A DNA stretch of 64,000 nucleotides from an uncultured Actinomycetes bacterium. GTDB lineage: Bacteria; Actinomycetota; UBA4738; JBBDHU01. Position numbers and translations under genes: made by a program. The stretch lies in the NCBI GenBank assembly GCA_964640385.1, contig CAZXFL010000003.1:100725-164724 (forward strand), in the 5' to 3' direction. Shown in pieces: positions 6,525 to 38,580 of the stretch (positions are counted from its first letter, which is position 1; each line of letters starts with the position of its first letter). Below the pieces are notes generated by a model that saw only the letters and a list, made by a program, of their open reading frames with translations, was not told the origin of the DNA and searched no databases.

Positions 6525-6673
6525 AGCGCCTGGCCGAAGCCTCGCTCGCATCGACCTCAGACGGCCGATGACCCCGGATCTGGAACGCGATTTGCAAGGT
6601 TAGCCCGCTGGGCATACGGTCGCGGCCGCGGTGGAGACCGCCGCCGCATGTGCGGGGAGAAGGAGGTTCGGAT

Positions 6674-6832
6674 ATGAGTGACGCCCAGGTGAAGAGCCAC
6701 GATTCGCCGGACGAGACGCGGACGTTCGACAACGGCCAAGTGGAGGTCGTGAAGCTTGCGAGCGGAACGGTCGGGCGCGCGACTTTCGAGCCGGGCTGGC
6801 GCTGGTCCGAGCACGTCAAGCCTGCAGCGGCA
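6674..6832 (+). pseudogene. truncated 5' duplicate of the cupin gene at 68-430
   Basis: About 155 bp of nucleotide homology to 74-230, plus about 70 bp of the upstream leader with the same RBS. The reading frame then diverges into unrelated sequence after ...HVKP. Confidence 0.5.
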
Positions 6833-7041
6833 GAGCAAGAGGGCAGGGAAGCAGGCAAAGGTGGCAACGACGCGCTACAAGATGGGGCAGATCTCCTACG
6901 CGGCTTACGGCAAGGTGTACGACAGGTCCGCGGAGGCCTACGACCGGTATTCGGAGGCCTACGATCTGGTCGTCAGGCTCGAGTTCCGCATGTCACAGGC
7001 CGAGGACCGTCTGCGGGGGGCCCTGTTCGGCGGCCGCAGCC

Positions 7042-7581
7042 CTAGGTCGGTGGGACGGCCGTGGGCACCTGGCCCGCTTTGTTAAAGGGCAGGTAGATCA
7101 CGTCGAGGGTGGTCGCTCCAAAGGTTGTCGACGCGAAATCAATGCCCAGCGCCCGGAGCTCGACTTTGTGCATGCCCTTCGCGACCGGCCAGGCGGCATT
7201 CGTGGAGCAGTCCTCCTGCGCATTTGTCGCCGCCGTCAGCTCGATTTGCCGGAGGGAGCTGGATAGGCTCACGTCGTTCAGGAAGATCATGCAGGAGACG
7301 CCCTCGTCGGCGACGAAGTTGCTTACGTCCGACGAGGCGACCATGAAGAGATAGCCGCGCTTCGGTGCGGCGATCGTCGTCGCGGCTGCGACACCGCTCG
7401 TTCCGCTGAGTGCAGTGCCGTCCGTGTGGTCTTCGGCGAGACGGACGAGTTGGTTCGCGTGGTAGCCGTCCACCTTGTGGGCGTTGGCGATGATCGCAAT
7501 CGCCGGTCCCCCGGAGGCGATTAGACCGGCGGCGAAGCCCGCGATGATGGAGCCGGAATGCTTCCTGAGCAGCCGCGTCAT
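7042..7581 (-). CDS. secreted hypothetical protein
   Basis: ORF of 179 aa with an N-terminal hydrophobic signal-like region (SGSIIAGFAAGLIASGGPAIAIIANA). Confidence 0.45.
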   Translation of the reverse strand: MTRLLRKHSGSIIAGFAAGLIASGGPAIAIIANAHKVDGYHANQLVRLAEDHTDGTALSGTSGVAAATTIAAPKRGYLFMVASSDVSNFVADEGVSCMIFLNDVSLSSSLRQIELTAATNAQEDCSTNAAWPVAKGMHKVELRALGIDFASTTFGATTLDVIYLPFNKAGQVPTAVPPT

Positions 7582-7756: not shown

Positions 7757-7835
7757 GTGCCCCGGGAGGAATCGAGCCCCCGCCACCCGGTTAGGAAACC
7801 GTTGCTTCTATCGACTGAGCTGCGGGGCCCGGGCC
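7757..7835 (-). other. tRNA-like remnant (pseudo-tRNA)
   Basis: Minus-strand sequence has a GCTCAGTCGATAG D-arm-like segment, a GGGGGCTCGATTCCTCC T-arm-like segment and a 3' ...CGGGGCACC end. The anticodon region forms only a tetraloop hairpin (CGGTT-TCCT-AACCG), so no valid cloverleaf can be drawn. Confidence 0.3.
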
Positions 7836-8003
7836 GGGGGCCAGAGCAACTGGCGCTCTAACGGGGCTCGAGCTCAAGGGCCCTGTCGGCCCTCTACCCT
7901 ATCCTGTCGGCCCTCTGCCCTTTTAAGGAGCGCTTGGCGGGCCCAACCCCACCGGGGCTGCGCAGGGCCCGGAATGAAAAGATTCGCAGGTCAGAGCATA
8001 TTC

Positions 8004-8190
8004 GCGGAGGCGGACGGGATTCGAACCCGCCGGGGAGTTTTCGCCCCCACACCGGTTTTGAAGACTGGTGGGATCCGTCCATGGGGTCTGCGCTAGTCCA
8101 CGCGGGTCCACCCTCAGGCGCAAGTTGTCTACTCGGGTCCACCCTCGTCCGGGCGGGTCCGTGAACGGATGTCTGTAGGGCGTCAGTACG
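8004..8190 (-). repeat. partial copy A of the tRNA(UCA) 3' half, fused to a conserved ~120-bp arm repeat
   Basis: 8004-8064 matches the anticodon-loop-to-3'-end segment of the tRNA at 12005-12096 (TCTTCAAAACCGGTG...GGCGGGTTCGAATCCCGTCCGCCTCCGC). 8065-8190 matches 9651-9780 (GGATCCGTCCATGGGGTCT.CGC.AGTCCACGCGGGTCCAC...GTCAGTACGG). Confidence 0.6.
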
Positions 8191-8427
8191 GGGAGCAGGT
8201 CCAACCCGGGTGGCAAGTCATGATTCGGCGAGCGGACCGACTATTGGGGCCCTGTCGACCGAACCCACCGCTAGGATGCCGAGCATGGCCCGACGCCTCC
8301 TCGTGGCACCCGTCTGGATCGCTGCGTGCGTACTGGCGCTCACGGCTTGCACGGCACGAAGCAAGACCTTCGAACGTGACGGAGCCTCGTTCCAGTACCC
8401 GACTCCTGGAACGCGCAGGCCACGGTC

Positions 8428-8859
8428 GTGGGTGAGAACCCAACCGAGAGCTGTGGGAACGGTTTCTGGTCGGTCAGTTTCGAGACCGGGTCCGCTGCAC
8501 AGGCAGATGTCGTCCTATGTCCAGTCAGCGTCAATCCCGCCGATGAAGAACAGATCGAGAGTCTGATCACCGATGACTTCGATCGGCAGCACCCCAGCGG
8601 GATGGAGTGGACGCTCCGCGACCTCACGGATCGCGAGATGGGCGGGTTGAGAGGGATGTATGGGGAGGCGGAGGTGCTAGCAGGGCGGGGAGCCGAACTC
8701 GGCATCGAGGAAGGGACCCATCATGAGTACAGTGCGATCGCGACGAATAGCGGGAGTGTGGATTGGTACCGGATCGTTTGCACGTTCCCGAATCCCGATC
8801 CTGCCGATGTCGGCCAGGCGTGTCAGGACATGGCCGAGTCGTTCACGGCGGAGGCGTAG
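8428..8859 (+). CDS. hypothetical protein, possibly the frameshifted mature part of a lipoprotein
   Basis: ORF of 143 aa. A lipoprotein signal (MARRLLVAPVWIAACVLALTAC) is encoded in another frame at about 8279-8400 and runs into this ORF. This suggests a frameshift or a sequencing error. Confidence 0.35.
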   Translation: MGENPTESCGNGFWSVSFETGSAAQADVVLCPVSVNPADEEQIESLITDDFDRQHPSGMEWTLRDLTDREMGGLRGMYGEAEVLAGRGAELGIEEGTHHEYSAIATNSGSVDWYRIVCTFPNPDPADVGQACQDMAESFTAEA

Positions 8860-8867
8860 CCAGCTCG

Positions 8868-8935
8868 CTTGAAGTTGTCTACGCCAGTCCACCCTCGTCT
8901 ACGCGGGTCCATGAATGGATGTACTGAGGATCTAG
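8868..8935 (-). repeat. solo copy of the distal part of the arm repeat
   Basis: GTTGTCTACGCCAGTCCACCCTCGTCTACGCGGGTCCATGAATGGATGT matches 8128-8185 and 9708-9775. Confidence 0.5.
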
Positions 8936-8945
8936 CCGAGGTCCA

Positions 8946-9455
8946 TCATTTCGCCGTGACCGCCCAGGTGCCGTGCACGTTGAAGGAGAACGAGCTGCTG
9001 GTGATGTAAGGCGACGTACCCAAGACGAAGCCCCAAGGCGTGACGCCCGCCGACGCCTGGGTCCGAGGGTCAACGAAGACGACGCTTCCCTGAGACCACC
9101 CGCCACCGTAGTAGATGCAAAGGTGGCCGGGCTTGGCGGACGGCTTGCTGACCGTGCCCTGGCATGCCGCTGTCGTCTCACTGGGGCCGAGTACGTGGCC
9201 GACCGGAGTGAAGTTGAGTCGTTGAGGGAACGTCACGGCCTCCAACTGCATGTTCTGGGTCGCACCCGTTGCCTGCATCCCGCTCACGTTGAAGACGCCG
9301 CGCTCGGTCTTCCCGGACGGCAAGGCACCGGCGGCTCGCGGTGCCGGGCCTTCGGTGTCGCTCAGCGAGGTTCCCGCATAGGCGCCGCCGCCGAGGGCGA
9401 GCACAAGGGCCATGGTGGAGACGACGTTCGCGTAGGTGAGCCGGAAACGACGCAT
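8946..9455 (-). CDS. secreted hypothetical protein
   Basis: Signal peptide MRRFRLTYANVVSTMALVLALGGGAYA. Island cargo. Confidence 0.5.
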   Translation of the reverse strand: MRRFRLTYANVVSTMALVLALGGGAYAGTSLSDTEGPAPRAAGALPSGKTERGVFNVSGMQATGATQNMQLEAVTFPQRLNFTPVGHVLGPSETTAACQGTVSKPSAKPGHLCIYYGGGWSQGSVVFVDPRTQASAGVTPWGFVLGTSPYITSSSFSFNVHGTWAVTAK

Positions 9456-9574
9456 CGGAACCTCCCGGGTCGGATCGAGGCAATGCTATCACCGGCGGTC
9501 GGGGTGAACACCAGGCGTGGAGGCCCCCACTCCCGTGAACAGGTCGGCAAGGGTTACGCAGGTCTCCGCATGTG

Positions 9575-9780
9575 AGCGGAGGCGGACGGAGCGGAGGCGG
9601 ACGGGAATCGAACCCGCCGGGGAACTTGCGTCCCCCCACCGGTTTTGAAGCCGGGTGGGATCCGTCCATGGGGGTCTACGCCAGTCCACGCGGGTCCACT
9701 CTCAAGCGTGATGTTGTCTGCGCCAGTCCACCCTCGTCCACGCGGGTCCATGCACGGATGTCGGTACAGCGTCAGTACGG
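9575..9780 (-). repeat. partial copy B of the tRNA(UCA) 3' half, with a 15-bp tandem duplication, fused to the same arm repeat
   Basis: 9590-9650 matches the 3' half of the tRNA. AGCGGAGGCGGACGG is present twice in tandem (9575-9589 and 9590-9604). 9651-9780 matches 8065-8190. Confidence 0.6.
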
Positions 9781-9870
9781 AGACCTGAACGCCCTGACGG
9801 GATGGGCGTAGGTGACGCCCAGCCCGTTCGAATGAACCCAGTCGTCGGTGAGGATCGAGGCGGAGCTCGC

Positions 9871-12000
9871 CTAGCAGGCTCCCGCTGCGGCGCAGACCCC
9901 GATGTCTCCCAGCGTGCCGTTCGCCCCGCCGTCGCCGTCGAGCCCGTCGTCCTCGCCCGTCCCTTGGACGGCTGGGGCACTTGCGCCACCGGTCCCCCCG
10001 GTTCCGCCGCTCCCGCCGCTGATGGTGTTACCGGAGATCACGGGTGCGCTCGCCGCTCCGGACCGGTAGATCCCCCAACTGGAGCCGCCGGCGCCCCCGC
10101 CACCGCCCCCGCCATGACCACCGTGGGCTCCGGCGCCACCGGCGCCCGGGCTGGACGATCCGGGGTGCAGACCCGGAAGCCCGCCAGAGCCACCCGGCTG
10201 GCCGCGGCCGCCGCTTCCGCCGTTCCCACCGTTGCCACCATTCCCTCGCTGGATGTCGTTGCCGGAGATCGTCGGAGAGGAGTCGATGACATAGATGGCG
10301 AATGATCCGCCTCCAGCGCCGCCTCCGCCGCCGCCCCCGCGAGCGGCAAGTCCTCCAGCGCCGCCTCCACCGCCGCCGCCGCCCCAGGCGTCCGTCCCGC
10401 TATCGCACCCGCCGCCGCCTCCTCCTCCTCCTCCTCCGCTCCCGTTCTGACCTGTGCCGCCGCCGCTGGCTGCCGATCCGAACCACAATTCCCCAGACAA
10501 GAAGCCTCCTGAGCCGCCCCCGGCCCCGGCTGATCCATTGACGACCATGCCGGGAGAACCAGTGCCTCCGGCCGTGCCGCCGCCGGCGTCGCAACCGGCT
10601 GAGTTCGCCGGGCCGCCGGTCCCCTGAGCGCCCGCGCCGCCCGACGTGAAGTCGGCGGACGACCCGACGTCGCCGGAGGTGGCGGTCAGATCGAAGGGGC
10701 AGCTGTTGTCCATCTCCCCGCCGGCGCCGCCGGCGCCGCCGTCCATGTCGCGCGAACTCGGTGAGGTGCCCGAATTCGTCCCGCGTGATCCCCCGGCACC
10801 GTGGCTCGTGTCATCGCAGGCCAGCTGCTCGGCACCGGATCCCCCTTGATCACCGGAGGGCGCCGCAGTGAGCGTCGTCGCATCCCAACCGTTCCCACCG
10901 TCTGCTCCGTCCGCGCCGTCGCCCGCGATGATGGTGTTCCCCGAGATCGTGAGGACACCCGCCGGCACGTCCTCGACGAGGATCGTGTACGACGCCTTCA
11001 TCGATCCGCCGACACCCGTGGTGGAATTCGCCCCCTGCAGTGTGAGATCGGCCAGGATCGTCGGCTGGGTCAGCCCCTCGGCTGCGACGGTGACGGTCAT
11101 GGTCCGGTCCGGAGTCGCTGTCGTTACGACGGCGCCGTCGATGCCCTGCACGGTGGCCTCGTGACCGGGCGACTGAGGCGACGCGCGTAGGTACGATTGG
11201 TCGTAGCCGCCATAGACGCTCACGCCGTTGGCCATCTGGAAGAACCCGCTCGGGTAACTACCGGCCGCGACGTAGACGTCCCGATGCCCATTTGCAGCCG
11301 CGGTATCGATGCCCTGCTGGACGGTGGCACACGGGGAAGCCATCGTGCAGGCAAATCCCGAACCGGTTGTGGCAACGAAAGCCGCCTCGGCGACCTCGCC
11401 GTCGATCCCGTCGCAGTTGACGTCAACGAAGATCGTGTCCGGAAGGTCCGCGAGGCCTGGATGCACGCTGGGGTCGGCCGGTGCGCAGTCGCCGGTGGCC
11501 GGAGAGTATCCATCGCCGTCCGCATCCAGGGTCTTGGTCGGCACCGTCTTGCTCCGGGCCTGATTCCCGGAGCGATCGGTGACGGGCTTGGAGCGCGTGC
11601 GCTTGTAGGTGAGCCCGGGTGCGGCGGCCAAATCGGGCGAGCCACTCTCGGTCAATACGATCGTGATCGTCTTCCCCTGCGCGGCGCCGGCGCTCGCAAC
11701 CGAGTATCCCGCGACCTTGAAGGGGTACTTCCCGTCGGCATCGGCTTGGTGTCGAACCTTCTCGTTGTACGTGATGAGGATGCGGTCGACCTGGCCATCC
11801 GCGTCCAGATCCAGCATGGCAGCGCTGACGATCTTCGGCGGCTTCCGATCCGCGGCTCGTGCGTGCGGTGGGGGCAGGATAGCGGCAAGGACGAGTACTG
11901 GAACGATGATGGCTCGTGGGGTTCGGCGCACCGCGGAGATCCTCCCTCTCCGGAAGTATGAGCCGACCCTGTGTGGCTGTCGAGTCGCGTCTACGACTCC
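9871..12000 (-). CDS. large secreted glycine-rich parallel beta-helix repeat protein with MopE-like metal-binding motifs
   Basis: Signal region (RTPRAIIVPVLVLAAILPPPHARA). DADGDGYSPATGDCAPADP...DVNCDGIDGE is a putative MopE-type metal-binding motif. Repeated ISGNTI/ISGNDI beta-helix caps and long Gly-rich tracts. The ORF track extends it artificially through the tRNA. Confidence 0.6.
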   Translation of the reverse strand, partial: GVVDATRQPHRVGSYFRRGRISAVRRTPRAIIVPVLVLAAILPPPHARAADRKPPKIVSAAMLDLDADGQVDRILITYNEKVRHQADADGKYPFKVAGYSVASAGAAQGKTITIVLTESGSPDLAAAPGLTYKRTRSKPVTDRSGNQARSKTVPTKTLDADGDGYSPATGDCAPADPSVHPGLADLPDTIFVDVNCDGIDGEVAEAAFVATTGSGFACTMASPCATVQQGIDTAAANGHRDVYVAAGSYPSGFFQMANGVSVYGGYDQSYLRASPQSPGHEATVQGIDGAVVTTATPDRTMTVTVAAEGLTQPTILADLTLQGANSTTGVGGSMKASYTILVEDVPAGVLTISGNTIIAGDGADGADGGNGWDATTLTAAPSGDQGGSGAEQLACDDTSHGAGGSRGTNSGTSPSSRDMDGGAGGAGGEMDNSCPFDLTATSGDVGSSADFTSGGAGAQGTGGPANSAGCDAGGGTAGGTGSPGMVVNGSAGAGGGSGGFLSGELWFGSAASGGGTGQNGSGGGGGGGGGGCDSGTDAWGGGGGGGGAGGLAARGGGGGGGAGGGSFAIYVIDSSPTISGNDIQRGNGGNGGNGGSGGRGQPGGSGGLPGLHPGSSSPGAGGAGAHGGHGGGGGGGAGGSSWGIYRSGAASAPVISGNTISGGSGGTGGTGGASAPAVQGTGEDDGLDGDGGANGTLGDIGVCAAAGAC

Positions 12001-12004
12001 TTCG

Positions 12005-12096
12005 AGCATATGAGCGGAGGCGGACGGGAATCGAACCCGCCGGAGAACTTGCGTCCCCCCACCGGTTTTGAAGACCGGGGGGCCCACCAGGAACCC
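12005..12096 (-). tRNA. selC: class-II tRNA with anticodon UCA (tRNA-Sec/selC candidate, or a Ser-type opal suppressor)
   Basis: Minus-strand fold: acceptor GGAGGCG/CGCCTCC with discriminator G; 3-bp D-stem with a GG-containing 11-nt D-loop; anticodon stem CCGGT/ACCGG with loop CUUCAAA (the same loop as E. coli selC); a ~20-nt variable arm forming a 6-bp hairpin with a GCAA loop; T-arm GGCGGG-TTCGATT-CCCGTC. The acceptor plus T-stem total 13 bp, as in tRNA-Sec. Confidence 0.5.
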
Positions 12097-12244
12097 TGAC
12101 GCCTCCGTGGGGCAGCCTATCCGTCCGGCGCCGTCGGCACGGTCGGGTCGCGACCGATCTCGCAGGCCGGGTTAGGCTACGTCGATGGAACCGGGTCCCG
12201 TGCGGGCCTCGATCTCGACTTCCTGATCTGAAGGAGCTGGCGAA

Positions 12245-12757
12245 ATGAGCAGCACGACCGCGCGACTACGAACCCGGCTGGCGCTCGTCGCCCTCTCGAC
12301 GGCGTTCGTCATCTTGACCACCGCGCTCCCCGCTTCGGCGTGCTGCTCGGGTCCGGATCCGGATGACACGTCTGGCAGGCTCGACATGTCCGCGGCGAGC
12401 GGCTTCAAGGATGCCCCAGGTGCACCACTCGACCTCAGCATCGAAACGTTCGGGCGATGGGGTGACCGCGTACTGGCGCGCAGTGGTCCTGGTCGGGTGT
12501 TCGTGTACTTCGACACGACGGGCGACTTGGTCTCCGACTATGTCGGCAAGGTCAAGCTTGCGCACGGTCGGCTCGTGATGGTCATCACCGGTCCCGGTTT
12601 CAGGAGCCAGCCGCTCGAGGTGCGGCGTCCGAACCGCAGCAAAGCCAAGGTGACGGTCGCCTTCTATTTCCGGACCGAATTCACGGCGGTCGGTGCCTGT
12701 TCGGGTGGCTGCGCAGACGAAACCCCGGATGTCCCCGGCTGGTTCGGGCCGATCTAG
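12245..12757 (+). CDS. secreted hypothetical protein
   Basis: Signal peptide (LALVALSTAFVILTTALPASA). No known domain. Confidence 0.5.
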   Translation: MSSTTARLRTRLALVALSTAFVILTTALPASACCSGPDPDDTSGRLDMSAASGFKDAPGAPLDLSIETFGRWGDRVLARSGPGRVFVYFDTTGDLVSDYVGKVKLAHGRLVMVITGPGFRSQPLEVRRPNRSKAKVTVAFYFRTEFTAVGACSGGCADETPDVPGWFGPI

Positions 12758-12903
12758 CCCCGGGGTCTGACTAGTCCGTCCGGGCCATCTCTGGTGGTTC
12801 GGCCCCAGAGGGCTAAACCTTTCCGGCGTTCCTGCCGAGGGAAAAACTGGGGACAGCTAACGCAACGCGCCGACCTACGCATGCCCTTTCTTCATCGGCT
12901 TCA

Positions 12904-13302
12904 TTGATAAGGAAAGGAGAGGGCATGGGTGCCGCGCCGTTCGTACAGTCGTTCGCGCGGAACTTGGAGCAGGGTGAAGGGGTGCAGGCGTTCGTGGACG
13001 CCATCGTTCGGTACGGCGATGGGCTGCGGACGGGGAAAGTCGTCCTGACGGATCGGCGGTTGCTGCTGATTCTGCCGGACGACGAAGGTGGAGAACCGGA
13101 CATCCGTGCGTTCAAGCGCACGGAGTGCACGGTCGTCAGTACCCAGGAGCGTGATGACGGCGGTGTCCTCGTCGTTCTGAAGCTGCGGGATCGCGTACTG
13201 GGATTGTGCTTCATGGATTGGTGGCGTCAGGAAGGCGAGCAGCTGATCGCCTCCCTAAGCCCCGAACAGGAAGGAGGGCGATCGCACCGCCGGGTGAGCT
13301 GA
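12904..13302 (+). CDS. hypothetical protein (possible bacterial PH-like domain)
   Basis: ORF of 132 aa. The KVVLTDRRLLLI...ECTVV pattern is reminiscent of bPH domains. Confidence 0.35.
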   Translation: MIRKGEGMGAAPFVQSFARNLEQGEGVQAFVDAIVRYGDGLRTGKVVLTDRRLLLILPDDEGGEPDIRAFKRTECTVVSTQERDDGGVLVVLKLRDRVLGLCFMDWWRQEGEQLIASLSPEQEGGRSHRRVS

Positions 13303-16573: not shown

Positions 16574-16770
16574 CCCGGGGGAGCACGGCATCCCCCGGAT
16601 GGGGTGCCGACGTGCCCGATGCATCCCGCGCGCGAATCGGTCGCTTTGGCGATTCACGGGTGCATCCCATCCGCGTAGGCTTGTCCATGTTCCGCAGGAC
16701 GGCCGACGCCCTCGGATGAGCCCCCTCTCCTCCCTATCGCAGTGCAAGTAGTTCCGGGCTTCCCGTCTGG

Positions 16771-17856
16771 ATGGAGACTATGGTTGGGGTCGCGAGGGTA
16801 TTGCTCGCGTGCGACGAACCGATGTTGGCCGAGGAAGTGATGAGCTTCCTCGATCGCACGGGTCGCGCGAAGGTGGTCGCCGCGGCGGCCGATCGGCAGC
16901 AACTCGCCGAAGCGGTGCGACAGGTGAGTCCGGACGTCATCGTCGCGACGCCGAGCCTCGCCGGTCATGTGGATGCCTCCGTCGCGCCGATCCTCGTCAT
17001 GGATCGGTCGGAAACGGTCGGCGGGCTCCGGACCGCGCTGCGGACCGGTGCGGTGGGGTTCACGGTGTGGCCGGATGACCGTGACGGTCTGGCCGGGCTG
17101 GTCGCATCGTCGGCGTCCGAGGCACCGGTCGCATCTGCTGCGGGACCGACGAAGGTGATCACCGTCGTCGGGGCGCGCGGCGGTGCGGGTGCGACGTTCC
17201 TCGCGACGCATCTGGCCGACGCCTGTGCGCGCCTGGGGTCGCGGACCATCCTGATCGATGTTGATCCGGTCTTCGGCGAGGTGGGGTTCGCGCTCGGCGC
17301 ACACCGGGATCCAGAGGCGAGAACGGCTCGCGAGCTGGTCCCGATGATGGACGAGCTGACCTCGGCGCATCTCGAGGAGGTCCTGTGGCCGCACCCACGC
17401 GGGTTCCGTGTGCTGCTCGGGGGCGAAGGCCTCCTGCCGTCACACCATCCCGGATTGCTGGCGGCGGCGGGCGGCGTGGCTGATGCCCTGATCGTTCATG
17501 TGCCCCGCTCCGACCTACTGGGTTCCGTCGGACTCCTGGCCGCGAGCGACCGCCTGCTCTGCGTGTTGCTGCTCGACGTCATGAGCTTCCAGTGTGCGAA
17601 ACGCCTCCTCGACGGGCTCGAGGCCCAGCCGGCACCGCAGGCGGATCTGGTCCTGAATCGCGCGTCGCGGGCCGAGCTGGTCCCGGGCGACGTCGTGCGC
17701 GTGTTCGGCCGTGCCCCCCTGGCGATCGTTCCCGAGGATCGCGCAGTGGCATCCGCGCAGGACCGGGGCCGGCTCCTCTCGCCACGGAGCCGTCCTTGCC
17801 GTGCGGTCACCCGGCTCGCCGGAACCATCCTCGAAGACGGGGAGCGGGCAGCGTGA
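16771..17856 (+). CDS. cpaE: Flp pilus assembly protein CpaE/TadZ (receiver-like N-domain plus ParA/MinD-type ATPase)
   Basis: Walker A-like VVGARGGAGATFLATHLA preceded by a REC-like N-terminal domain. Gene order with cpaF. Confidence 0.8.
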   Translation: METMVGVARVLLACDEPMLAEEVMSFLDRTGRAKVVAAAADRQQLAEAVRQVSPDVIVATPSLAGHVDASVAPILVMDRSETVGGLRTALRTGAVGFTVWPDDRDGLAGLVASSASEAPVASAAGPTKVITVVGARGGAGATFLATHLADACARLGSRTILIDVDPVFGEVGFALGAHRDPEARTARELVPMMDELTSAHLEEVLWPHPRGFRVLLGGEGLLPSHHPGLLAAAGGVADALIVHVPRSDLLGSVGLLAASDRLLCVLLLDVMSFQCAKRLLDGLEAQPAPQADLVLNRASRAELVPGDVVRVFGRAPLAIVPEDRAVASAQDRGRLLSPRSRPCRAVTRLAGTILEDGERAA

Positions 17857-19226
17857 GCGGCGACGGGGTCGCGTCTACGTCCCTGCGCCAACGGCTGCAC
17901 CGGCGCTTGGTCGAACGCGTCGACGCGGAGGTGTTCGGGTCGGTGTCGCGGGCCCAGCGCCGTCTCCGGGTACGTGAGGAGGCGCTGGCCATCCTTCGCG
18001 AGGAGGGGGAACTGTTGCCGCACGCGTCGCTGACGCGAGTCGTGAACGAGATCGCCGATCGTGTCGTCGGGCTCGGACCCATCGAGTCACTCCTGCGGGA
18101 CCCGGAGGTGACCGAGGTCATGGTCAACGGGCCCGGCGACGTCTACGTGGAGCGGAGGGGGCGGCTCGAGAGGGTGCCCGATGTCCTATTCGAGGGGGAG
18201 GAGGATGTCGTGCATGTGATCGAGAGGATCGTGGCACCGCTCGGTCTGCGGGTCGATGGATCGTCACCATATGTGGACGCCAGACTCGCGGACGGCAGCC
18301 GTGTGCATGCGATCCTTCCGCCCCTTTCGCTCTGCGGCCCCGTCCTAACGGTGCGCAAGTTCTCGCTGGCCCCACTCTCGCCCGAGGACCTGGTCGGCAG
18401 TGGAACGCTGGGTCCTCGGATGCTTCTGTTCCTCGCTGCGTGCGTCCGCGGGAAGGCGAACATCGTCATCTCCGGCGGTACCAGTTCCGGCAAGACCACC
18501 TTCCTCAACGTGATCTCCTCGTTCATCCCCGAGCGCGAGCGGCTCATCACGATCGAAGATGCGGCCGAGCTCCGGCTCGGGAAGTCGCACGTGGTCGGTC
18601 TCGAGGCCCGGCCGCCCAACGTCGAGGGCAGCGGCGAGGTGACGGTACGGGACCTCGTCCGGAACGCGCTGCGGATGCGCCCCGACCGGATCATCGTGGG
18701 CGAGGTGCGTGGCGGCGAGGCCCTCGACATGTTGCAGGCCATGAACACCGGCCACGACGGCTCGCTCTCGACCGCACACGCGAACTCCTCCCGCCACTTG
18801 CTCTGGCGGCTCGAGACGATGGCGCTGATGTCGGACATCGATCTTCCCGTCGAGCACGTGCGCGGGCAGGTCGCCTCGGCCGTCGACGTGATCGTCCACA
18901 TGGCCCGCCTGGCCGACGGCAGTCGGAAGGTCACCGATATCTGCACGGTCGAAGGGTTCCACGACGGACGTCCGGTCCTCGAGCACGTCTTCCGCCTCGA
19001 CCGATCGTCGGGATCGACGGGCGTCTTCGTCGGGTCCGGGCAGGAGCCGGCGCTGGCAGGGATCCTCGTCGAGCGGGGGGAACGGTTGCCCGACGGACTC
19101 TTCGGTAGTCATGCGGATGTCGCCGGTCCGCCCGGAAGGGGGTCCCGGGACCCGGGAACCCCCGCGGGGGCCGCGCCGTCGCCGTCCGATGACGAGATCG
19201 TGCTCGAGCCGGCGGTGTCCCGATGA
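17853..19226 (+). CDS. cpaF: Flp pilus assembly ATPase CpaF/TadA
   Basis: VirB11-family motifs: SGGTSSGKTT (Walker A), RPDRIIVGEVRGGEA, GHDGSLST. GTG start overlaps the cpaE stop (GTGA). Confidence 0.9.
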   Translation: MSGDGVASTSLRQRLHRRLVERVDAEVFGSVSRAQRRLRVREEALAILREEGELLPHASLTRVVNEIADRVVGLGPIESLLRDPEVTEVMVNGPGDVYVERRGRLERVPDVLFEGEEDVVHVIERIVAPLGLRVDGSSPYVDARLADGSRVHAILPPLSLCGPVLTVRKFSLAPLSPEDLVGSGTLGPRMLLFLAACVRGKANIVISGGTSSGKTTFLNVISSFIPERERLITIEDAAELRLGKSHVVGLEARPPNVEGSGEVTVRDLVRNALRMRPDRIIVGEVRGGEALDMLQAMNTGHDGSLSTAHANSSRHLLWRLETMALMSDIDLPVEHVRGQVASAVDVIVHMARLADGSRKVTDICTVEGFHDGRPVLEHVFRLDRSSGSTGVFVGSGQEPALAGILVERGERLPDGLFGSHADVAGPPGRGSRDPGTPAGAAPSPSDDEIVLEPAVSR

Positions 19227-19948
19227 TCCTCTGGATGTTGGCATGTGGCGCCACCGGGGCGGCGCTGCTCGGCACCTCATGCGTGGTTGCCGCCCGCGAC
19301 CATCAGCAGGTCACACCGCGCATCGGCCTCCCCGGCGCCCGTGCGCGGCGGCGTCCACTGTGGGCCGGCCGAGTCGGATGGCTGGGAGCCTTCCGTCGTC
19401 GGAGGCAGGCCGTCCTGCTTGCGTCGCAACTCGCAGAGATGGTGCGGTCCGTAGCCGGTGGCCTGCGTTCGGGAGCGTCGTTGTCCGGCTCGCTGGCGCT
19501 CACCGCGAAGGAGTCTCCACAGCCGGTCTCGGATGTGTTGTCGGGGGTCGTAGCCGGGGAGGCTGCCGGTGCGGGGCTCGATGACGGCCTCGCGCGCTGG
19601 GCGAGCGAGGCCGGGGACGACGACGTCGGGTTGGTGGTCGCCGCCGTCCGTATGCACCGGCGAGCCGGTGGCGATCTCCCATCGGTGTTGGACCGGCTCG
19701 CGGGAACGCTGGACGAGCGGACGGCGTGCCGCCGTGAAGTGCGGTCGCTGACGGCACAGGCCCGGCTCTCGGGGCTCGTCGTGGGTCTGCTTCCGGTCGG
19801 GTTCTTCGCGTTCCTGTCACTGACCTCTCCCAGGGATATGGCTGCGGCGTATGCCTCGCCCATCGGCGGGTTCGCCATCGTGGCCGGCCTGATGCTGGAG
19901 GGCGGTGCGTTCCTGTGGATCCGGCACCTCCTGCGGGTGGATCCATGA
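19223..19948 (+). CDS. tadB: Flp pilus assembly protein TadB (T2SS-F domain)
   Basis: Membrane protein with a GspF-like domain. Its ATG overlaps the cpaF stop. Confidence 0.8.
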   Translation: MILWMLACGATGAALLGTSCVVAARDHQQVTPRIGLPGARARRRPLWAGRVGWLGAFRRRRQAVLLASQLAEMVRSVAGGLRSGASLSGSLALTAKESPQPVSDVLSGVVAGEAAGAGLDDGLARWASEAGDDDVGLVVAAVRMHRRAGGDLPSVLDRLAGTLDERTACRREVRSLTAQARLSGLVVGLLPVGFFAFLSLTSPRDMAAAYASPIGGFAIVAGLMLEGGAFLWIRHLLRVDP

Positions 19949-20781
19949 TGGCCCTGCTTGCACCTCTTCTCGGGGCCCTGGCGGTGGCCTGCGTCGTGTT
20001 GGCTTCATGGCCCGATGGCCGGCGGGGCTTGCTGGTGATGGCCGGACCGGTCCTACCGAGAGACGGTGCACCCATGCGGCTCCGCCGGCAGCACCTCGGT
20101 CGCGTCGGGGCGTCTCGCATCGGGTCGCTGATCCGGGGATCGAAGCCATCGCCGCTCAGCGGCGCAGCCGGCTGGTCGGGAGAGGAACTCGCCGGGGCAC
20201 AGATCCTCGTCGGGACGGGAGTCGCGCTCGGCTCGCTACTCGTCGGCGTCCCCCTCGCTGCCGGTGCGATCCTGGCCGTCCTTGCCGGCGCCCTACCGCG
20301 GCTGTTCGCCGGTCGTGCGGCGCGAGCGCGGGCGGCTCGGATCGATCGCGAGGTCCCTCAGCTCCTGGACCTGCTCGCCGCCGCGGCGTCCGCGGGACTC
20401 GCGGCTCCGCTGGCGCTTCGCCGCGCCACCGAGGGGCTGCGCGGTCCGCTCGCGACCGAGCTCGGGGACGCGTTCGGGAACGTGTCCCTCGGCGGCCGAT
20501 GGCGACACGAACTCGCTGGGCTGGCCGAGCGGCTGGCCAACGCAGACCTCCGTCGCATGGTTGCCGTCGTCGCGCGGACCGAGCGTCTCGGGATCCCCCT
20601 TGCGGACGCCGTGACCGGACTCGCGTCCGAGGTCCGGCGAGCACGCCGCGATGCCGCGATGGAGCGCGCGCGCAAGGCCCCGGTCAAGATGCTCCTTCCC
20701 CTCGTGTTCATGATCCTGCCTGCGTTCCTCCTCCTCACGGTGGTTCCGGTGCTGGTGTCGACCGTCCGGTCGATCCGATGA
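19945..20781 (+). CDS. tadC: Flp pilus assembly protein TadC (T2SS-F domain)
   Basis: Second GspF-like membrane protein. ATGA overlap with the tadB stop. Confidence 0.75.
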   Translation: MMALLAPLLGALAVACVVLASWPDGRRGLLVMAGPVLPRDGAPMRLRRQHLGRVGASRIGSLIRGSKPSPLSGAAGWSGEELAGAQILVGTGVALGSLLVGVPLAAGAILAVLAGALPRLFAGRAARARAARIDREVPQLLDLLAAAASAGLAAPLALRRATEGLRGPLATELGDAFGNVSLGGRWRHELAGLAERLANADLRRMVAVVARTERLGIPLADAVTGLASEVRRARRDAAMERARKAPVKMLLPLVFMILPAFLLLTVVPVLVSTVRSIR

Positions 20782-20795
20782 GAAGGAGGTATCCG

Positions 20796-20984
20796 ATGTT
20801 GCAGAGGTTGTACGTCCGGCTACTGCTGGCTCGCGAGGAGGGCCAGACGACGGCCGAATACGCGCTGGTGATCCTGGCCGCGGCCGCGGTCGCCGTGGTC
20901 CTGATCGCGTGGGCGAAGTCCTCGGGCAAGCTGCCCTCGTTCTTCGACAACATCATCGATCAGGTCACCGGGAGTGCCTCGTAG
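20796..20984 (+). CDS. flp: Flp family type IVb pilin
   Basis: 62-aa prepilin with the Flp motif EGQTTAEYALVILAAAAVAVVLI, preceded by a GAAGGAGG RBS. Confidence 0.7.
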   Translation: MLQRLYVRLLLAREEGQTTAEYALVILAAAAVAVVLIAWAKSSGKLPSFFDNIIDQVTGSAS

Positions 20985-21354
20985 CCAGCGGGCCTCGTCG
21001 ACCGTCGAGTTCGCCCTGGTCTTGCCGCTGCTGCTCATCGTCCTGCTGGGCGTGGTGCAGGTCGGTCTCGTGATGCGCGACCAGTTGCGCGTCTCGCAGG
21101 CGGCCCGCGAGGCGGCCCGCGAGGCGACGGTCACGCTGGACGAGGCGGCGATCAGGGGGGCGGCCGAGCGCTCCGGCCTGGACGGGGCGAGGCTCGAGAT
21201 CGGCATCACTCGCGAGGGTGGTGCTCCCGGCGATGCGGTTGCAGTCGCCGTCACCTATCACGAACCTGTGGTGGTCCCCTTCGTCGGTTGGCTCTTCTCC
21301 GACGGGTTCGTCCTGACGGCGGCAACGACGATGCGTCAGGAGGTATCGGCGTGA
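20974..21354 (+). CDS. tadE: TadE-like pilus assembly protein
   Basis: N-terminal TadE signature STVEFALVLPLLLIVLLGVVQVGL. Confidence 0.65.
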   Translation: MPRSQRASSTVEFALVLPLLLIVLLGVVQVGLVMRDQLRVSQAAREAAREATVTLDEAAIRGAAERSGLDGARLEIGITREGGAPGDAVAVAVTYHEPVVVPFVGWLFSDGFVLTAATTMRQEVSA

Positions 21355-35381: not shown

Positions 35382-35901
35382 GCCCTAGCGGGGACGGGGT
35401 CCTCGTGCGCGCTGCTCGGATCCCTTCGCTCCCGCTCGGGACCTCGTCGACGCTCGCACGAGTCCCCGCCCCCTGCCGTCACCAGCCTGCGGGCGCACCC
35501 GTTCCGCACCGTGGCCTTGGGAGCCAGAACCTGTCCGTTCCTCCGGGAATCGATCCATGGCTGTAAGGCGCGGTCGGTCGCCTGCTTTCTGGCCGTGACG
35601 GGGTCGGTGAATGCCGCATCCCTGTCCGAGGACGTACACCTCGCCCGAACGGCAGGGTGCAGTTCCCATGGCCGGGCCTTCGTCCCGAAAATGTCAGTGG
35701 TGGGAATTACAATCGTGCCATTCGGTGTTATGCACCGTTTTCCACCGGTTGTCCCAACGCCAAAACCGCAGGTGGGTAAGGGAATGACAGGAAAGTTCGA
35801 GATGCGACCTGGGGAAAGAGTTCTCCACACCCGAATCCCCTCGCTTTCCCATTCCCAGGCGGGGGGCGCGGGGCCTACCCTGCGGGTTCCGTCGACGGGG
35901 G

Positions 35902-38580
35902 GTGTGGTGGTTGGCGCTGGTCGCTGAGGATCCCCGGCGGATCCGTCCAGATCGGATACCGCCACACAACCTGGACGCTGAGGAATCGGTCCTCGGCTCC
36001 ATGATGCTGTCCGGCGAAGCCATCGCTGACGTCGTGTCCCAGCTCAAGGCCGACGACTTCTACCGTTCGGCTAACGGCACCATCTTCAAGGCCATCCTGT
36101 CGATCTACGCCCACGGCTCGCCCGTCGACGCCATCACCGTCGTCGAGGAGCTGAAGCGCGGCGGAAACCTCGAGCAGATCGGGGGTCACCTCTACGTCCA
36201 CGAGCTGGTGCAGAACGTCGCGACCCCGGCCAGCGCGGCTCACTACGCGCGGATCGTCGGGGAACTGGCGCTCCTGCGGCGGATGATCGCGGCGGCCGGC
36301 AGGATCATGGAGCTCGGCTACTCCAACCCCCGCGACCCCGAACGCACAGCAGATGATGCCGAGGACCTCATCTACAAAGTCGCCCGCCACAGCGAGCAGG
36401 ACGAGGTCGTGTCGATGGCGGCGCTCGTCGATGGCGCCATCACCGAACTCGAGAAGTCCCAGCAGCACGATTCGCCGTTCGTCGGGGTCCCCACCGGCTT
36501 CACCGACCTGGACTCGCTGACCGCGGGCCTGCACCCGGGGAACCTGATCGTGATCGCCGCGCGTCCGGGCGTCGGGAAATCCTCCCTCGTGACCAATCTG
36601 GCGCGCAACGTGGCGGTCGCGGCCGGCACCTCCGTCGCCATGTTCTCGCTCGAGATGTCGCGCTGGGAGATCGGCATGCGTCTGCTCTGCGGCGAGGCGA
36701 GGGTCCCCTGGGACAACATCCGCGGCAAGCGGACGAGCCCCGACGACTGGGCCCGCATCGTGGAGGCCGCCGAAGTCCTGAACGAGGCTCCGCTGTTCGT
36801 GGTCGACTCGGGCAACATCAACATCGTGGACATCAGGGCGAAGGCCCGGCGGCTCCGGTCCAAGCCGGGCCTGGGCATGATCATCGTCGACTACCTCCAG
36901 CTCATGTCCTCGCCGGGCCGCGTCGAGTCGCGCCAGCAGGAGATCGCCGAGATCAGCCGGAACCTTAAGCTGCTGGCCAAGGAGATGGAGATCCCGGTCA
37001 TCGCGGTCTCCCAGCTCAACCGCGACCCGGAGCGCCGGCAGGACAAGCGGCCTCAACTCTCGGACCTGCGCGAATGCGTGACCGGCGACACGTTGGTATG
37101 CCTCGCCGACGGGAGCCGGGTTCCGATCCGCGGGTTGGTCGGCTCAACGCCCGAGGTCCTCGCCGTCTCGGCCGAAGGCCGTCTGGTCGTCGCCGGCAGC
37201 GACCGGGTGTGGTCGAAGGGGAACAAACCGGTTTTCGCGGTCCAGACCGCGACCGGACGGATGATGCGGGTGACCGCGCGTCACCGTGTGCTCACCGAAC
37301 GAGGGTGGACGCGGGTACACGACCTGGAGGTGGGTGACCGGCTGGCCCTCGCCCGCAAGATGCCCGAGCCCGCCAACCCGCTCCAGTGGCCGGACGACCA
37401 TGTGATGCTCCTCGCACACCTGATCGCCGCGGCGGATCTGTCGGGCCACCCCGTGGCCTACGGCACCCGCTTCGAGGAGAACGCCCGCGCGGTGACCGCA
37501 GCGGCGCGCCAGAGCTTCGACATCACACCGGAGTGGATCGAGGGCGAGCGGCACGCCGTGTCCTTCGACGGCACGGACCACCCGAACGCGTTCGACGACT
37601 GGTTGAACGGGCTCTCGCTCGCGGGGCGCCGGCGGCCGGAGCTGAGGGTTCCCGGTGACGTCTTCCGTCTGGCGGACGCGCAGATCGCGAGGTTCTTGCG
37701 GCACCTGTGGGCCGACGCGGGCGCCATCGCTCCCGGGGTGGTCGGCGGCGGGATGGCCGACATGTGGTTCTCCGCGACCGGGCGGGGGCTCGCCGAGGAC
37801 GTTGCTGCGCTGCTCTTGCGAGTGGGGGTCGTCGCCCAGCTTCACGACGCCTCGACCGGCGCGGCGGACCGATATGAGGTCGCGGTGGTCGGCGTCGACG
37901 AGCAGGCCCGGTTCCTCGAACGTGTCGGAGCGTTCGGGCCGCTGGTTCCGTCGGCCGAGCAGCTCGCGCTGGTGCTGACCAGCATGGCCGACGTCACGAT
38001 CAGCTCCCTGCCGCGTGAGGTCTTCGACGGCAACGGGAACGGTGCCCACGGCATCTCGTCCCGGATGACGGCGGCCCTGCGAGGGACGACGTCGGGCGGC
38101 GGGGACGCGGGTTCGACGGGCGAGGCGCGTCCGTGGCACCCGAGCCGGACGGGCAAGGCGGGGACCGGAGGCGGTGCCACCGGCGTCGATCCGGACGCAG
38201 CAGCGGACGAGTCGCCCGTTCCGACAGCCGGCGGGCGGGACCTGCTCTGGGACCCGGTCGTATCGGTGGTGATCGACGGCGAGGAGGAGGTCTTCGATCT
38301 CACCGTGCCGGGACCGGCTTCCTGGCTCGCGGACGGTGTCGTGAGCCACAACTCCGGTGCCATCGAGCAGGACGCCGACATCGTCATGTTCATCCACCGC
38401 GAGGATTCCGAGGATCCGCAGGTCAAGGGCACCGCCGACCTGATTATCGCCAAGCACCGCAACGGACCGACCGGCGTCGTGAAACTGACGTTCCTGCCGC
38501 AGCTGACGCAGTTCAAGAACTACGCGCCCCCACAGGCCGTCGGCAACTACCCGCCGCAGTCGCAGCCGACCGGTCCGTGA
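35902..38580 (+). CDS. dnaB: replicative DNA helicase DnaB containing a 426-aa intein
   Basis: N- and C-exteins align with DnaB (Walker A GVGKSS; ...QLSDLRE | SGAIEQDADIVMFIHRED...). The insert begins with Cys and ends with ...VVSHN followed by Ser. Confidence 0.9.
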   Translation: MWWLALVAEDPRRIRPDRIPPHNLDAEESVLGSMMLSGEAIADVVSQLKADDFYRSANGTIFKAILSIYAHGSPVDAITVVEELKRGGNLEQIGGHLYVHELVQNVATPASAAHYARIVGELALLRRMIAAAGRIMELGYSNPRDPERTADDAEDLIYKVARHSEQDEVVSMAALVDGAITELEKSQQHDSPFVGVPTGFTDLDSLTAGLHPGNLIVIAARPGVGKSSLVTNLARNVAVAAGTSVAMFSLEMSRWEIGMRLLCGEARVPWDNIRGKRTSPDDWARIVEAAEVLNEAPLFVVDSGNINIVDIRAKARRLRSKPGLGMIIVDYLQLMSSPGRVESRQQEIAEISRNLKLLAKEMEIPVIAVSQLNRDPERRQDKRPQLSDLRECVTGDTLVCLADGSRVPIRGLVGSTPEVLAVSAEGRLVVAGSDRVWSKGNKPVFAVQTATGRMMRVTARHRVLTERGWTRVHDLEVGDRLALARKMPEPANPLQWPDDHVMLLAHLIAAADLSGHPVAYGTRFEENARAVTAAARQSFDITPEWIEGERHAVSFDGTDHPNAFDDWLNGLSLAGRRRPELRVPGDVFRLADAQIARFLRHLWADAGAIAPGVVGGGMADMWFSATGRGLAEDVAALLLRVGVVAQLHDASTGAADRYEVAVVGVDEQARFLERVGAFGPLVPSAEQLALVLTSMADVTISSLPREVFDGNGNGAHGISSRMTAALRGTTSGGGDAGSTGEARPWHPSRTGKAGTGGGATGVDPDAAADESPVPTAGGRDLLWDPVVSVVIDGEEEVFDLTVPGPASWLADGVVSHNSGAIEQDADIVMFIHREDSEDPQVKGTADLIIAKHRNGPTGVVKLTFLPQLTQFKNYAPPQAVGNYPPQSQPTGP
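37075..38352 (+). other. DnaB intein (splicing domain plus LAGLIDADG-type homing-endonuclease remnant)
   Basis: Intein block A CVTGDTLV. C-terminal HN followed by the +1 Ser. Internal LAGLIDADG-like blocks (LLAHLIAAADLSG; FLRHLWADAGAI). Inserted in the conserved DnaB ATPase H4 site, as in known DnaB-b inteins. Confidence 0.85.

Follow-up and report, generated by a model that had tools for sequence, protein, structure and literature searches.

A predicted Sec-exported beta-helix protein with conserved glycine-rich segments, encoded in a small islet at tRNA-Sec of an uncultured actinomycete

Very few solved proteins contain natural glycine-rich bundles of polyglycine-II (PGII) or polyproline-II (PPII) helices, structures that are of interest to protein designers. 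Described examples include the glycine-rich domain of ALK/LTK, phage S16 gp38 and the snow-flea antifreeze protein, and the PGRS domains of PE_PGRS proteins have been predicted to form PGII sandwiches (PMC9436101). Among synthetic peptides, (X-Gly-Gly)n sequences form double-layered PPII sheets and all-glycine sequences form a honeycomb, an arrangement also found in ALK (10.1101/2023.11.25.568672). The other described proteins closest to the one studied here are right-handed parallel beta-helices, among them BT_1002 (5mqp), Pel9A (1ru4), the pneumococcal adhesin PfbA (3zpp/4mr0) and the autotransporter passengers pertactin and Vag8. Here we describe a gene that may join these two architectures in one product. 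It lies next to the selenocysteine tRNA gene (tRNA-Sec) in a 64,000-nucleotide stretch of DNA from an uncultured Actinomycetes bacterium (contig CAZXFL010000003.1 of assembly GCA_964640385.1, positions 100,725 to 164,724; hereafter the window, numbered from its first letter). We read its product as a Sec-exported, extracellular protein of 686 amino acids (aa) that belongs to a very large uncharacterised family, is carried as cargo of a remnant element at tRNA-Sec and has a stand-alone binding or structural role; for this reading as a whole we consider the chances evenly balanced.

Family, predicted fold and glycine-rich segments

HMMER, run in full against 1.84 billion cluster representatives, returned 12,267 sequences at E<=1e-3 and 3,559 at E<=1e-30, and the family members at the stricter threshold span several bacterial phyla. 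A word-indexed protein search returned 463 homologues, the nearest of which is only 51% identical, while a pattern scan of genome contigs, which was saturated by glycine-rich patterns, yielded one distant Nannocystaceae locus. The named matches, from Kofleriaceae, Polyangia, Gemmatimonadales, Methyloprofundus and Nocardioides humilatus, are all called "hypothetical" or "putative metal-binding motif-containing" proteins. We found no Pfam or NCBIfam model for the family, and our literature search found neither a description of it nor a characterised member. The coding sequence and the parts of the predicted protein are as follows.

9871..11931, minus strand: coding sequence as called, 686 aa plus the stop codon at 9871-9873, from the open reading frame (ORF) list, the N-terminal alignment with homologues and homologue searches
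11854..11931, minus strand: predicted Sec-type signal peptide, residues 1-26, MRRTPRAIIVPVLVLAAILPPPHARA followed by ADRK, from hydropathy and homologue alignment
11527..11853, minus strand: predicted Ig-like beta-sandwich with a DLDADG loop, residues 27-135, from the structural model and weak Foldseek matches to Ig domains
11392..11526, minus strand: Asp/Cys-rich loop, residues 136-180, DADGDG...DC...DxPDxxFxDxNCDGIDG, with Cys149 and Cys173; a MopE-type "putative metal-binding motif"
10927..11391, minus strand: first part of the predicted right-handed parallel beta-helix, residues 181-335, with an N-terminal cap helix at 204-214 and the pair Cys195/Cys201
9874..10926, minus strand: C-terminal half, residues 336-686, in which beta-helix rungs alternate with glycine-rich segments of fixed length; Cys680 and Cys686 are terminal
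10418..10437, plus strand: perfect trinucleotide repeat (CCT)6.7 found by TRF, equivalent to (AGG)6.7 encoding part of a run of ten glycines

The N terminus has the parts expected of a Sec signal peptide, with a basic n-region (MRRTPR, three Arg), a hydrophobic h-region (AIIVPVLVLAAIL; Kyte-Doolittle hydropathy peaks at 3.25 over residues 8-18) and a small-x-small cleavage site (PPPHARA/A), and so agrees with the signal region of the initial annotation, which had been made from the DNA letters and their ORFs. The protein is thus predicted to be secreted through Sec, with a mature length of ~660 aa. Ten cysteines (residues 149, 173, 195, 201, 372, 411, 447, 509, 680 and 686), which are conserved in 77-98% of family members, fit an oxidised extracellular protein, and five cysteine pairs would brace its structure.

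We built a full-length AlphaFold2 (AF2) model with a 62-sequence alignment, and it reached a mean predicted local distance difference test score (pLDDT) of 90.8 and a predicted template modelling score (pTM) of 0.80. Residues of the signal peptide are disordered in this model (pLDDT <50), and the Ig-like domain has seven strands between residues 34 and 134. The model superposes on solved beta-helices, and the predicted fold is a right-handed parallel beta-helix of the pectin-lyase-like type, as the initial annotation had proposed. Rungs of the C-terminal half lie at residues 476-485, 543-561, 618-638 and 674-680. The same annotation had also described repeated ISGNTI caps; the sequence has ISGN(T/D)I at residues 329, 555 and 632, and in the model all three motifs are strand-turn-strand parts of beta-helix rungs rather than caps.

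Sequence and structure searches gave few matches for this fold. No Pfam beta-helix family (Beta_helix, NosD, Pectate_lyase_3 or DUF1565) matched the protein at E<=1, none matched any of the 62 members at E<=0.01, and NCBIfam and PHROGs gave no meaningful match for the protein. A Foldseek search of the PDB gave no match at E<=1e-3, and PDB sequence searches with the family profile and with the C-terminal half were uninformative, except for a weak match to the N terminus of MopE*. The domain searches that had been suggested as a check therefore gave a sub-threshold MopE motif, treated below, and no beta-helix match in Pfam or NCBIfam. Compared with BT_1002, Pel9A, PfbA, pertactin and Vag8, the protein differs in belonging to no Pfam or NCBIfam beta-helix family and in having C-terminal rungs separated by conserved glycine-rich segments of 34-140 residues, which are absent from those proteins; only ~65 of 351 residues superpose.

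A pectin-lyase-like fold would also suit a secreted polysaccharide lyase, hydrolase or epimerase on which the glycine-rich segments are decoration, and we consider this the best of the alternatives, if an unlikely one. By alignment, the beta-helix proper (residues 181-335) has no conserved catalytic cluster of acidic and basic residues on a helix face: it lacks an Asp/Glu/Lys cluster, and of its clearly polar residues only Y226 and R249 are shared by 75% of members or more, although the model coordinates were not inspected and a site built from distant residues is possible. In addition, there is no Pfam, NCBIfam or PDB sequence match to such enzyme families, non-enzymatic adhesins such as PfbA score equally well, and no carbohydrate-utilisation genes recur beside the homologues.

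Glycine makes up 25% of the whole protein and 38% of its C-terminal half, where four glycine-rich segments occupy residues 336-475, 486-542, 562-617 and 639-673. The glycine-rich tracts named in the initial annotation are present, for example GGGGGGGGGG at residues 499-508 and GGNGGNGGSGG at 565-575. Between residues 336 and 686, 78 alignment columns are at least 90% glycine and 107 are at least 60% glycine. The period-3 power of glycine reaches a z of 9.3 in residues 562-617, a value that none of 1000 shuffles attained, and a z of 3.7 in residues 639-673; residues 486-542 hold invariant all-glycine runs, with conserved runs of 7-10 glycines. DSSP assigns neither helix nor strand to the glycine-rich segments, yet their pLDDT is >90. 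The three-residue glycine periodicity of (X-G-G)n stretches and the all-glycine runs are the sequence features of PGII/PPII bundles, and high model confidence without helix or strand assignment is a described hallmark of these structures (PMC9436101; 10.1101/2023.11.25.568672).

On this basis, the glycine-rich segments would fold as packed polyglycine-II-type helices, with (X-G-G)n stretches forming sheets and all-glycine runs forming a honeycomb-like core, and the result would be a flat, rigid lamina attached to the solenoid. Such a hybrid of beta-helix and polyglycine-II may exist here; it is plausible from the sequence features and not demonstrated. As a statement about the whole family, namely that it has an undescribed hybrid fold in which a beta-helix is interleaved with a polyglycine-II lattice, (X-G-G)n sheets surround an all-glycine honeycomb core and the whole presents a rigid, flat extracellular recognition surface, we put it forward tentatively and with somewhat less confidence than the overall reading given above. 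The protein does not resemble RTX-type Ca2+ beta-rolls, since GG.G.D occurs only at residues 345 and 505, each time in isolation, and GGxGxDxUx nonapeptides in tandem are absent. It also differs from PE_PGRS proteins in that it has no Pfam PE-domain match, has a Sec signal peptide and then an Ig-like domain at its N terminus and keeps its glycine runs at constant length. Of the likeness to PGRS-type proteins that had been pointed out, a probable glycine-rich polyglycine-II architecture is what remains, while the PE domain, polymorphism and a detectable sequence relationship are all absent.

The initial annotation had also named the glycine repeats as candidates for length variation, and a variable surface protein of PGRS type, with repeats that slippage lengthens and shortens, would account for the glycine content and for the perfect (AGG)6.7 repeat within the Gly10 run. 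We regard it as very improbable. In the six glycine-rich stretches that we tested, length was unchanged in 61, 62, 54, 62, 62 and 60 of the 62 homologues, which are 35-51% identical to the protein, and the model is confident rather than disordered. A JGI metagenome contains a version of this locus (L004) with 99.87% DNA identity to the window over 16.7 kb, and the gene differs there by two synonymous changes (at A652 and G517) and one S114F substitution, with no indel. The fixed run lengths in the family and the absence of an indel in the metagenome variant argue against variation driven by slippage, and the suggested comparison of repeat number across strains shows no length difference in this second population variant. 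The glycines are probably structural, forming conserved and predictably rigid tracts rather than low-complexity noise.

The Asp/Cys-rich loop and the proposed role of the protein

Two MopE-type motifs and putative copper binding had been attributed to the protein. We found a single Pfam-type motif (DC...NCDGIDG), with the DADGDG loop before it and no second motif; PF11617 (Cu-binding_MopE) aligns to residues 148-177 with 16.7-16.8 bits against a gathering cut-off of 27 (E 0.008). PF11617 does match 23 of the 62 family members at E<=0.01, down to an E of 2.7e-12, so that the motif is a family feature that has diverged, and its MopE-type character holds at that level. Within the loop, D162, P164, D165, D170, N172, C173, D174 and D177 are conserved in 89-95% of members.

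The significant PF11617 matches in relatives, together with a match of the family profile to MopE* (2vov, E 1.1e-3), could be taken to mean that this is an extracellular copper-binding protein like MopE or CorA, but we give this idea little credence. The motif of this protein scores below the Pfam cut-off and is present in one copy, and the profile match covers only chain residues 5-51 of MopE*, leaving the remainder unmatched. The Cu(I) ligands of MopE* are Kyn130, His132 and His203, in a crystal model that begins at Gly47 (PMC3423442), so that the matched part is away from them, and the match does not include the copper site of MopE*/CorA, which consists of two His and an oxidised Trp. The conserved Asp, Asn, Pro and Cys residues instead suit a loop stabilised by Ca2+ and a disulfide, like the structural Ca2+ site with acidic ligands in MopE*/CorA (PMC3912023). 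The Asp-rich loop thus probably holds Ca2+, and copper binding finds no support in this analysis.

The module that runs from the Asp/Cys-rich loop to the C terminus often terminates much larger proteins, of up to 2,433 aa, and the position of the Ig-like domain is taken in other members by CARDB, Big_13, Big_1, FlgD_ig or PKD domains, so that this N-terminal part appears exchangeable. No neighbouring genes were shared among five homologue loci. The small number of conserved polar residues in the beta-helix, the lack of shared neighbours and the surface-protein type of the N-terminal domains together point to a stand-alone, non-enzymatic role, in which the protein would function by itself outside the cell, as a binding or structural module of adhesin-like kind. 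That it is a binding or structural protein rather than an enzyme is our best guess from these sequence features, and it is the weakest step of the argument.

At one of the homologue loci, in Nocardioides humilatus (L002), a 62-aa ORF at 7816-8004 precedes the homologue P0089 and overlaps its start by 4 nucleotides (nt). We saw no equivalent of this ORF in the window or at the other homologue loci.

The tRNA-Sec islet and the start of the gene

Elements that integrate into tRNA genes leave an intact tRNA, followed by their cargo and then by a direct repeat of the 3' part of the tRNA, and the flank of tRNA-Sec in the window has this arrangement. The features on this side of the gene, and those at the start of the gene, are listed here.

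12014..12106, minus strand: tRNA-Sec with anticodon TCA, found by ARAGORN and as Rfam RF01852 (78.8 bits at 12016-12106); its 3' portion is the repeated, attachment-site (att)-like core
11955..11983, minus strand: promoter-like site, a consensus match with -35 TCGACA, a 17-nt spacer and -10 CATACT
11941..11946, minus strand: Shine-Dalgarno-like GGGAGG, 9 nt upstream of GTG 11931, read from the sequence
9591..9783, minus strand: distal end of the islet, made up of repeat D2 (9713-9783), repeat D6 (9671-9708) and a copy of the tRNA-Sec 3' part (9591-9673), with the variable arm of the present tRNA
8874..8944, minus strand: isolated third copy of D2, immediately following the stop codon of the gene for a putatively secreted 169-aa protein (8946-9455)
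8004..8194, minus strand: outer copy of the same structure (D2, D6 and tRNA 3' part), resembling the tRNA of sibling genomes

The 3' part of tRNA-Sec occurs in three copies (12014-12096, 9591-9673 and 8004-8086), which delimit two islets of 2.4 kb, holding the gene, and 1.6 kb. Both displaced copies are preceded by ~110 nt of common TGGAC-rich sequence (D6 and D2), and the D2 core is found within the window only at the tRNA-Sec flank. The sibling genomes and the outermost copy, at 8004, carry GTGTGGGGGCGAAAGCTCC in the variable arm, whereas the present tRNA and the middle copy, at 9591, carry GTGGGGGGACGCAAGTTC. This pattern is expected if two related elements integrated successively, each supplying a new 3' half to the tRNA, and the outer copy at 8004 is probably the displaced native 3' half. 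The tandem accretion, with two displaced copies of which the outermost is of host type and with TGGAC-rich, arm-like repeats adjoining each, is again a likeness to tRNA-targeted integrative elements. The island cargo of the initial annotation therefore stands as far as tRNA 3'-part repeats bound the insert, but what they bound is only a decayed islet. On this view, an element once inserted itself into the 3' end of tRNA-Sec, and the gene would be cargo in the 2.4-kb remnant that it left, which has no integrase.

Comparison with sibling genomes places the boundary of the variable region at the tRNA, since a 170-aa gene on its 5' side is conserved in the sibling L006 (82% identity). The contig of this closer sibling begins inside tRNA-Sec, and the comparison of the insertion site rests on a second sibling, L007, whose HAD orthologue is 86% identical. 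In L007 the genes directly after tRNA-Sec encode DsrE, TusA-SnoaL and HD-GerE proteins; as judged from its gene content, this is different cargo at the same hotspot. The protein search gave no orthologue that is more than 51% identical, and the gene has a GC content at third codon positions (GC3) of 0.78, compared with 0.87-0.91 for backbone genes.

Several further observations concern the same flank. The D2 repeat (~70 nt, TGGAC-rich) has three copies in the window and one in L007 (6030-6100), 2.9 kb from the tRNA-Sec of that genome; two of the copies adjoin tRNA halves and two stand alone directly after gene ends. D2 probably represents arm sites for an integrase or excisionase, with a role as cassette boundary as the alternative. 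Between the displaced tRNA halves, the second islet encodes a 169-aa protein whose N terminus resembles a signal peptide (8946-9455, minus strand) and contains a 143-aa ORF (8428-8859, plus strand), neither of which has a Pfam or PHROG match. Two independent assemblies from this lineage break at tRNA-Sec (Logan contig L005 starts at the tRNA 3' end, and contig L006 of GCA_040880465.1 starts inside the tRNA), which suggests that the site often carries repeated tRNA halves and thus inserted elements. On the other side of the tRNA, both siblings have tRNA-Sec and the HAD hydrolase gene separated by a gene with a TfoX_N domain (771-1133 in L006, 9063-9425 in L007), which is missing from the window (12757-12904).

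The start of the gene had been placed 3-4 nt from a tRNA 3' end at 12005, giving a protein of >700 aa. ARAGORN puts this end at 12014 and Rfam at 12016. The long ORF itself is a real gene: the minus-strand ORF that ends at 9871 was confirmed, and in its mechanical extent (9871..12087, 738 aa) the first ~25 codons are the tRNA-Sec gene read as protein. There are three in-frame options for the start, ATG 12009 (712 aa), GTG 11931 (686 aa) and ATG 11661 at codon 91 (648 aa), the last of which is implied by the JGI gene call P0001. We consider GTG 11931, 83 nt beyond tRNA-Sec, the probable start, because GGGAGG lies upstream of it, because a promoter-like site precedes it, because the N terminus of its product, MRRTPRAIIVPVLVLAAILPPPHARA/ADRK, aligns with the signal peptides of the homologues P0004, P0005 and P0089, and because the 26-residue extension from ATG 12009 has no counterpart in these three proteins. 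The sigma-70-like site at 11983-11955, between the tRNA and GTG 11931, is the only one within 9500-12400, where shuffled sequences give an expectation of 0.1. The cargo gene would thus have a promoter-like site, a ribosome-binding site and a GTG start of its own.

The other two starts were rejected. ATG 12009-12007 does lie 4 nt past the tRNA 3' end, as had been noted, and its extension is hydrophilic. It is contained in ATATGCTC, which recurs beside the tRNA-half copy at 8004 and so appears to be part of the repeated att core; we saw no comparable ORF beside the 8004 copy. A start at ATG 11661 would remove the signal peptide.

That the gene is instead a tailspike or tail-fibre gene left at tRNA-Sec by a decayed prophage is highly doubtful, since neither the protein nor its neighbours match a PHROG, a Sec signal peptide is present, the homologues stand singly on megabase contigs, in chromosomal surroundings that are not those of a phage, and the collection of viral contigs lacks the att-arm pattern.

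Our reading of the gene as the cargo of a tRNA-Sec remnant that encodes a stand-alone extracellular protein has several points against it. Unlike in known tRNA-targeted elements, there is no integrase or excisionase within 12 kb, as judged from recombinase domains in the ten ORFs left of and adjoining the tRNA, and the islets are only 2.4 and 1.6 kb in size. A parent element was not found in the collections searched, with the att-arm junction pattern absent from viral and metagenome contigs and the D2 core absent from metagenome contigs. The conserved residues D408, D510, D514, Q578 and H606 could form a site that has gone unseen. The protein has no cell-wall or membrane anchor, so that a location at the surface is only a possibility. 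The polyglycine-II assignment comes from periodicity, invariant glycines and the missing DSSP assignment and not from model coordinates, the signal peptide was judged only from hydropathy and alignment, and the promoter is only a consensus match.

The rest of the window and significance

Outside this region the window is occupied by core genes, including those for DnaB, DnaK, ClpB and PurA. DnaK is 97% identical to its counterpart in a metagenome-assembled genome labelled "Actinomycetota bacterium", and DnaK homologues place the host among uncultured Actinomycetota. The gene for the replicative helicase DnaB (35788-38580, plus strand) is interrupted by an intein that includes a homing-endonuclease domain of the LAGLIDADG type (Pfam matches to Intein_splicing and LAGLIDADG_3). 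At 16720-21300 (plus strand) lies a gene cluster for Tad/Flp pilus assembly, which encodes two TadB/C-like proteins together with two ATPases, one CpaE-like and the other a T2SSE ATPase of CpaF type; it is conserved in L006, where TadE and Tad genes follow. The start of a cupin-domain gene (Cupin_2) is duplicated at 60-430 and 6660-7045 (plus strand), in repeats D3 and D4, which are 6.6 kb apart and have 85-91% DNA identity, and the two copies bracket a sulfatase gene and a gene for a PQQ-like repeat protein.

For the organism, these findings mark the tRNA-Sec flank as a small integration hotspot in this Actinomycetota lineage. For annotation of the family, the label "Cu-binding_MopE" should not be taken to mean copper binding, and the glycine-rich tracts should be treated as structural. 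If the proposed fold is correct, the family would give the rare PGII bundles of ALK/LTK, phage gp38 and snow-flea antifreeze proteins a counterpart that is very widespread in bacteria and would be among the largest sets of such domains, and this protein would provide a tractable, Sec-secreted, single-gene model for how a polyglycine-II lattice folds on a beta-helix scaffold.

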